A DNA stretch of 40,799 nucleotides from a virus. Taxonomy: Duplodnaviria > Heunggongvirae > Uroviricota > Caudoviricetes. Under the pieces are notes generated by a model. The model did not search any database. It saw only the letters and a list, made by a program, of their open reading frames with translations, and had not been told where the DNA came from. Shown piece after piece: positions 15,132 to 15,875 of the stretch (positions are counted from its first letter, which is position 1; every line of letters starts with the position of its first letter). The stretch lies in the IMG/VR virus record IMGVR_UViG_2698536687_000008, positions 1 through 40,799 of that record. One strand, given 5' to 3'. A program made the translations under genes and the position numbers.

Positions 15132-15631
15132 TATTCGCTCCCGTTATCGCAAGGATCCTTTCGGTGGAAGTAATTCCAACCGTTCCACTTCGCCAACTGG
15201 TTACCGCTACCAACAGGCATGCGGTTTGGATAACCGGACTTACATTTAGCGGCTTTTGCTCTGTCCATTGCAGACAGTTTGACGAGTCGCTCTTTCCCGT
15301 ATCTGGCAGTAGTTATAAGTTTTGCAGAAGCTTCCAGCGCATAATCTGGAGCAATGCGGCAGGCAAGGTTGAAAATGACGGCATTGATAGCGTTATTTGA
15401 TAAACCGTGCTCATCTCCCGGATCCGGAGCGACATCTGCATCAGCAAAAATGTAGCCAACGTTGATACCAGGTGACGCATCACCGCCAAGCCATTCAGCC
15501 ATCATCATTTCAAGGTCGTTGACGCCGTCTTCCATAGACTGCGGTTCGACATCGGTTAACGTGGCATTTGATGCCACACCGAGCTTACGTAATGCCGCAA
15601 GAACTAAATCACCCTTCGTTGTCAGGTTCAT
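15131..15631 (-). CDS. Head completion/tail accessory protein, P22 gp4-like
   Basis: From Met at 15631: [33 protein letters not shown]... matches the P22 gp4 N-terminus; the ORF-track extension (SQSQ repeats) is upstream non-coding frame. Confidence 0.85.
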
Positions 15632-15875
15632 CTGCTGCCGCCTTAGGTTTTCTACCAGGCTTTTTACGCTGTTTTTCTTCTGTCTCTGGCTCTGGCTCTG
15701 GCTCTGGCTCTGGCTCTGGCTCTGGCTCTGCAACATCCTTCAGAAGATCATCAGGATGTGCAAACCAGCCAGCATCCAGATATTCCTGAAGCTCTTCGGC
15801 TTTCACGATTTCAAAGTCGTATCCAACGCCTTTCCATTTCTTCATGTCGCCATGACGAAAGATCATGTGTGTCAT
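15609..15875 (-). CDS. Small conserved protein between coat and gp4 with C-terminal (Glu-Pro)7 repeat (Sf6 gene 6 position)
   Basis: ATG 15875 preceded by GGAGA; [30 protein letters not shown]...[30 protein letters not shown]. Confidence 0.5.
15684..15730. repeat. Perfect hexanucleotide tandem repeat (CTCTGG)x7.8
   Basis: Seven perfect CTCTGG units plus a partial one; encodes (EP)n in the small ORF on the minus strand. Confidence 0.9.

Follow-up and report, generated by a model that had tools for sequence, protein, structure and literature searches.

An in-frame hexanucleotide array of variable copy number in the small gene between coat and gene 4 of a P22-like Escherichia coli phage

In-frame hexanucleotide VNTRs are a known phenomenon in enterobacterial and prophage genes, and coding VNTRs, some of them prophage-borne 6-bp loci such as STTR6 of Salmonella, serve as markers in the MLVA typing of enterobacteria. 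The gene slot studied here is known from P22 orf69, Sf6 gene 6 and HK620 HkbT, all of which lie between a coat terminator hairpin and gene 4 and overlap the start of gene 4 with their 3' ends. P22 orf69 (DAA00988) is annotated as 'unknown, putative' in BK000583. All three also resemble the gene described below in architecture: a hairpin/helix N-terminal domain with a G-W/F motif is joined by a short acidic linker to a basic G-R-K motif, followed by a tail that shadows the Shine-Dalgarno sequence and N-terminus of gp4. However, the linker of P22 and Sf6 is 4-7 residues long and non-repetitive, whereas our gene has a pure hexanucleotide array in its place, and the copy number of this array ranges from 1 to 33 units among isolates.

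We analyzed 40,799 nucleotides of the IMG/VR record IMGVR_UViG_2698536687_000008 (the window). This DNA belongs to a P22-like E. coli phage or prophage (Lederbergvirus) with its virion-assembly genes on the minus strand. The nearest deposited relative was IME10, with 95% identity across 65% of the first 25 kb. The portal (18140-20305), scaffold (17215-18126) and coat protein (gp5, 15920-17215; Pfam PF11651 P22_CoatProtein, E = 2.8e-166) genes were followed by a small gene encoding 88 aa (15609-15875), which the ORF list, phrog_1175 and BLASTP identified as a P22 orf69 homologue of PHROG 1175. The next gene was gp4, encoding the 166-aa head-completion protein or head-tail adaptor (15131-15631; Pfam PF11650 P22_Tail-4, E = 1.3e-58; phrog_637), with gp10 and gp26 further downstream on the same strand. 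The preliminary description of this DNA had placed a repeat-bearing 88-aa ORF between coat and gp4, and the two Pfam matches identify both neighbours.

A terminator scan and RNA folding showed a terminator-like hairpin (GGGAGC-UUCG-GCUCCC and a U-run; 15887-15914, minus strand) between the coat stop and the Shine-Dalgarno sequence of the small gene, with a fold energy of -18.9 kcal/mol (z = -2.7). Its counterparts are an annotated stem_loop in P22 and the 't coat' terminator in Sf6, and it probably sets the ratio of coat to head-completion expression or stabilizes the coat mRNA. The promoter scan found no sigma-70-like site in 15000-16600, and a self-promoter of the small gene was rejected for this reason. 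The surroundings differed in some relatives. The prophage of E. coli GPEC1446 carries an HNH endonuclease gene directly upstream of coat on the opposite strand (positions 3385-3596 of its locus, L003), where other loci have scaffold. In the assemblies of E. coli 0H26 and 0H24 (NZ_CP081786.1, NZ_CP081778.1), the related phage stands apart from the chromosome as its own record of 39,448 bp, which may be an episomal or induced form.

The array occupies 15684-15730 and is a head-to-tail run of perfect short units beyond chance. The plus strand reads (CTCTGG)7 at 15684-15725 and then CTCTG up to 15730, giving 47 nt or 7.8 units of perfect period 6, with the small gene on the minus strand. TRF reported 15679-15730 at period 6 with 8.7 copies and a score of 97, the top-scoring tandem repeat of the window. 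A three-unit probe of 18 nt showed 6 matches in the window versus 0 in 100 dinucleotide-preserving shuffles. On the minus strand the array reads GCA (GAGCCA)7 GAGACA, which translates as A-(EP)7-ET and supplies residues 49-65 of the 88-aa product. The (GAGCCA)7 codon register is 15687-15728, and the E-X tract of residues 50-65 spans 15681-15728. The earlier account of seven perfect CTCTGG units and a partial one, encoding (EP)7, was thus right in both coordinates and translation. The array is stop-free in all six frames, and the spurious plus-strand ORFs that it creates run at 15462-16124 (LWLW...) and 15568-15789 (GSGS...). The record of phage APC_JM3.2 (MG197996) already marks a repeat_region at this site; the same record labels gp4 as 'recombinase RmuC'.

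The ORF at 15609-15875 is a real gene, because it has its own Shine-Dalgarno sequence, a full-length match to PHROG 1175, hundreds of homologues and a constrained N-terminal domain. The Shine-Dalgarno sequence GGAG (15882-15885, minus strand) lies 6 nt before the ATG at 15875. The match to phrog_1175 covered the whole profile (E = 9.1e-37), and PHROG 1175 has no assigned function. The homologues were found in Escherichia, Shigella, Salmonella and Klebsiella records, and in E. coli genomes the corresponding CDS is annotated by PGAP. Comparison of the N-terminal 47 codons with the Kluyvera, Citrobacter, Buttiauxella and Rahnella homologues gave dN/dS of 0.04-0.18 at dS of 0.7-2.6. P22 Orf69 matched the small protein in pairwise BLASTP with E = 5e-9 and 34% identity. 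Membership of the Orf69-type family was also shown by the slot between coat and gene 4 and by the hairpin-helix N-domain with GW..HP followed by the basic G-R-K motif. The likeness to Sf6 gp6 was architectural only, with no significant sequence match found between it and the window protein. Pfam and NCBIfam scans of the 88-aa protein gave composition-driven matches only (Trypan_PARP, TonB, DNA polymerase III tau and E2 acetyltransferase), and composition bias is probably also behind the label 'dihydrolipoamide acetyltransferase' on some database entries.

The small protein combines a folded 46-aa beta-hairpin/helix domain with an acidic spacer, which contains the repeat and is predicted to be disordered, and a basic KKPGRKPK motif. 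The AlphaFold2 model was built on a 55-sequence alignment of short and long homologues. The folded N-terminal domain with its GW..HP motif was assigned to residues 1-48 (15732-15875, minus strand). Residues 1-46 were modelled with pLDDT of ~90 as a beta-hairpin (2-14/17-25), a helix (26-34) and a short helix (41-46), and G9, G36, W37 and P41 were invariant across all 55 homologues. Residues 47-88 were of low confidence (pLDDT 53-56) and without secondary structure. The basic, AT-hook-like motif at residues 68-78, which includes KKPGRKPK (15642-15674, minus strand), was compared codon by codon across lineages. It was kept at the protein level with synonymous codon variation in P22 (KPRKGRKPK), Sf6 (SKRGRK), Kluyvera, Citrobacter, Rahnella and Erwinia (KKRGRKPK).

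The 3' end of the small gene (..DEPDNEG*) overlaps the start of gp4 (MNLTTKGD, in the +1 frame) by 23 nt at 15609-15631 on the minus strand, compared with 17 nt in P22 and 26 nt in Sf6. Most lineages have the small-gene stop 14-23 nt inside gp4, while in Kluyvera and one Enterobacteriaceae homologue the small gene ends before gp4 with no overlap. The gp4 Shine-Dalgarno sequence AAGGCGG (15638-15644, minus strand) lies inside the small-gene codons K78-A79-A80, and all homologues compared have AAGGCGG or AAGGCAG at a distance of 6-9 nt before the gp4 ATG. This arrangement can explain why the last residues are so extremely conserved, since the K78-A79 codons are the gp4 Shine-Dalgarno sequence and DEPDNEG* is the shadow of MNLTTKGD. 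The conserved C-terminal tail is thus largely dictated by gp4, through its Shine-Dalgarno sequence and its out-of-frame N-terminal codons, an overlapping-gene constraint that mimics protein conservation. The last ~10 small-gene codons double as the ribosome-binding site and first codons of gp4. Translational coupling of the small gene to gp4 is plausible given the overlap.

The same region could also be read as an intergenic microsatellite with no small gene, or as part of a true product that is either gp4 with an SQSQ extension or a frameshift fusion to gp4. In the window, the gp4 frame stays open over 36 codons before the ATG, and the ORF at 15131-15736 (MLQSQSQ...) is this frame read back through the repeat. 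GenBank IME10 (JF974339 25847-26452) annotates gene 4 as the 606-nt, 201-aa SQSQ-extended ORF and omits the small gene. However, the small ORF is under strong purifying selection, with its own Shine-Dalgarno sequence, residues invariant in 55 homologues and a confident AlphaFold2 domain. Moreover, P22 and three other relatives have a stop right before the ATG that closes the upstream gp4 frame, the Pfam gp4 match begins at the internal Met (from residue 2 of the 166-aa form), and PGAP annotates a 501-nt gp4. The preliminary description had called the SQSQ extension spurious, and these observations bear it out. Lack of conservation of the upstream frame led us to reject an SQSQ-extended gp4 and a +1 fusion to gp4. 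The sole slippery-like site, A AAA AAG, is not conserved and leads to a wrong-frame stop, and a -1 frameshift there was rejected on this ground. That the small ORF is not a gene has next to no probability in our judgement.

It had been proposed that copy number may vary between isolates, in frame and with a change in linker length, and the suggested comparison across related prophages was run. The locus was carried by 217 of 5,426 complete E. coli genomes, with a matched span of 459-651 nt in 6-nt steps versus 501 nt here. Sequenced E. coli alleles contained 1 unit (401651), 20 units (CUVET19-970), 24 units (GPEC1446) and 33 perfect units (98195, locus L001). The best 80 IMG/VR loci contained 4-15 units, mostly pure GAGCCA; copy numbers from short-read assemblies may occasionally be mis-assembled, although arrays of ≤90 nt are shorter than typical reads. 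All differences among 83 alleles (the 80 IMG/VR loci and others, including those of GPEC1446 and 98195) were whole units of 6 nt. Both parts of the proposal held, since copy number varied from 1 to 33 units in relatives, including loci with identical 2-kb flanks, and every change stayed in frame and altered only the linker length. The arrays were pure GAGCCA in 66 of the 83 alleles, with a few lineages homogenized for the synonymous GAACCA and sporadic single-base variant units encoding DP, ES, EQ, ET, EL or KP. Protein clusters agreed, showing a variable repeat with invariant flanks.

Thirteen locus pairs showed 0 differences across 2 x 1000 nt of flanking DNA, yet copy number differed by 1-4 units in 8 of them, which shows that the array changes faster than a 2-kb region gains one substitution. 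With whole-unit alleles that change faster than flanking point substitutions, the array behaves as expected of a slipped-strand VNTR. The reading that we prefer, with a probability of roughly 0.7, is that of a near-neutral slipped-strand coding VNTR in a disordered, length-insensitive acidic spacer of a conserved late gene. The pure (GAGCCA)n would gain and lose whole 6-nt units via slipped-strand mispairing during replication. The reading frame and gp4 expression would never be broken, because the unit length is divisible by three and the gp4 Shine-Dalgarno sequence and start lie downstream of the array, and alleles would persist because spacer length is apparently under little constraint. 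The (Glu-Pro)n spacer would most likely be extended and polyproline-II-like at ~0.3 nm per residue, giving a length of roughly 0.6 nm at 1 unit and 20 nm at 33 units. On/off phase variation was rejected, since the unit is 6 nt and all examined alleles keep the frame and the gp4 Shine-Dalgarno sequence and start.

One set of observations sits uneasily with plain neutrality. Pure GAGCCA arrays of 6-8 units were found in Kluyvera, Citrobacter, Buttiauxella and Rahnella despite neighbouring synonymous sites near saturation (dS 0.7-2.6), and the GAGCCA unit is built from non-preferred codons. Molecular drive, recombination or selection on the repeat may be behind this purity across genera. Some property of the spacer, if not its exact length, is probably selected, given that an acidic X-Pro spacer is retained in most lineages.

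Other lineages showed other dipeptide runs at the same position (EQ, ES, DP and GT), including (GAGCAG)6 = (EQ)6 in Erwinia tracheiphila, and P22 Orf69 (linker PVEADDV) and Sf6 gp6 showed no repeat in the same slot. This comparison indicates a spacer that would tolerate varied composition and length and repeatedly seed dipeptide microsatellites, with the repeat itself apparently not required for function.

About one fifth of the E. coli loci carried a ~200-aa gene in the same slot instead, and such a gene was also found in many Salmonella phages (ST104 orf54, g341c gene 6, phage L and BTP1). This long allele consists of a homologous N-domain, an inserted ~100-aa WDGH domain (PF25311, E = 1.5e-39), the same (EP)n and the same tail, and its spans of 821-845 nt varied in 6-nt steps. 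Some long forms (P0163, P0166 and P0169) have the N-domain subtype of the window protein, so that the 88-aa protein looks like the bare chassis and is possibly a WDGH-deleted derivative. In E. coli SJC33 (locus L002), PGAP calls the long allele a pseudogene fragment though the full 203-aa frame is open. WDGH is widespread in Listeria, Bacillus, Streptococcus and Lactococcus phages. In one Serratia protein it is fused to a Tad2-like domain (Thoeris anti-defence 2, PF11195), which offers a faint hint that the slot may host counter-defence cargo. Three proteins from Serratia and a metagenome (P0218, P0200 and P0194) showed WDGH fused to Tad2-like PF11195 and to a crAss001_48 domain (PF21825).

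The presence of the same array in both the short and the WDGH-containing long allele would also fit an adaptive ruler or contingency locus, in which spacer length tunes activity (the reach from the N-domain to the basic motif, or escape from a host factor) and hypermutability is selected. The very wide range of 1-33 units, a rate of change that outpaces the first substitution in 2 kb of flank, and the retention of pure arrays across genera despite saturated synonymous divergence nearby point the same way, and the Tad2-like fusion hints at an arms race. However, the P22 and Sf6 homologues lack any repeat, no phenotype is known, and units of 6 nt cannot act as an on/off switch of expression. The copy-number distribution was broad with no discrete favoured states seen, and a neutral microsatellite in a disordered linker predicts every one of these observations too. 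We consider selection for spacer length unlikely.

The sequence common to the short and long alleles starts exactly at GCA-GAGCCA, the 5' edge of the array. The coincidence of this mosaic boundary with the array suggests a possible role at the nucleic-acid level, either as a homology patch or mosaic junction for swapping of the N-terminal module, or as a modulator of the gp4 coupling ~50 nt downstream. The identical nucleotide unit is kept across genera, and coupling is plausible where the small-gene stop lies inside gp4. However, (GAGCCA)n is not self-complementary and contains neither an SD-like sequence nor a known protein-binding motif, and the variant units GAACCA, GATCCA, GAGCAA, GAGTCA and GAGCAG preserve the acidic-X dipeptide pattern and not a nucleotide motif. 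For coupling in particular, gp4 has its own strong Shine-Dalgarno sequence, and the small genes of Kluyvera and the one Enterobacteriaceae homologue end before gp4. Such a role seems very doubtful, and near-neutral slippage within the spacer is the reading that we retain.

The 49-aa N-domain was used as a phmmer query against 1.84 billion representative proteins. The matches were of two kinds, short orthologues and GIY-YIG/HNH homing endonucleases at E = 5e-7 to 8e-4. The endonuclease scores were summed over 3-6 stretches of ~17 aa per protein, with 4-18 bits per module, and the matched C-terminal modules follow the tandem pattern x-Y-K-x-G-...-V-...-ELQxYLDxGW; with stretches this short, we regard the likeness as a lead. 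The GIY-YIG/HNH endonucleases P0249, P0252, P0254 and P0256-P0264 carry 3-7 tandem modules of ~35 aa (..WINNG..K.IK..ELQ.YLD.GW..G) that lie outside any Pfam model and resemble the Orf69 N-domain. PDB sequence and profile searches gave no match to the small protein, and Foldseek against BFVD returned uncharacterized small phage proteins only. A literature search on the locus, the repeat string, the WDGH domain, the YLDxGW motifs and P22 orf69 gave no relevant publication, with the repeat string leading to a synthetic linker only.

The resemblance of the N-domain to these modules, together with the AT-hook-like tail, weakly suggests that the small protein may be a DNA-binding accessory factor, non-essential and translationally coupled to gp4. 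A more speculative proposal, which we hold to be distinctly improbable, is that the Orf69 chassis serves as a tethering adaptor, with an endonuclease-related N-domain, an AT-hook-like tail and optional WDGH cargo, and that (EP)n is a selected hypermutable ruler that diversifies reach or antigenicity. If true, the array would be a contingency locus of the length type, within a phage factor for counter-defence or DNA handling.

Taken as a near-neutral VNTR, the array leaves the understanding of phage biology unchanged unless spacer length proves functional, and it provides a handle on orf69 function. The uncharacterized orf69/gene 6 slot of P22-like phages gains a defined modular anatomy. The highly polymorphic 1-33-unit marker could serve to tell apart Lederbergvirus prophages of E. 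coli, Shigella and Salmonella that are identical otherwise. The extension of gp4 through the stop-free repeat, with omission of the small gene, can be flagged as a recurrent annotation error. The gene family was already known though uncharacterized, and the array is of an ordinary kind of coding microsatellite that is unusually well documented here.

At the protein level, the acidic Glu-Pro run followed by a Lys/Pro-rich basic stretch is shared with the (Glu-Pro)n-(Lys-Pro)n region of TonB and with trypanosome EP procyclin, whose Glu-Pro runs are regarded as extended, rigid spacers. Homology to TonB was absent, as the NCBIfam TonB models scored 10-15 bits versus cut-offs of 265-377, over the EP/KP stretch only, and the membrane anchor and C-terminal TonB domain are absent from the window protein. 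The TonB run is also not a hypervariable pure DNA microsatellite, unlike the array of the window. The likeness to the AT-hook (core R-G-R-P flanked by K/R) is that of a short basic Gly/Pro motif in a disordered tail. The KKPGRKPK of the window protein has no RGRP core and no Pfam AT_hook match, while the canonical core K(K/R)RGRP (KKRGRPxK or KRRGRPPK) is present in the relatives P0151, P0164 and P0253. At the DNA level, the array resembles the VNTRs of MLVA typing in being hexanucleotide, in-frame, slippage-prone and prophage-borne, with many alleles among close strains. In contrast to loci such as STTR6, it sits in the virion-assembly operon of a P22-like phage, inside a conserved small gene.
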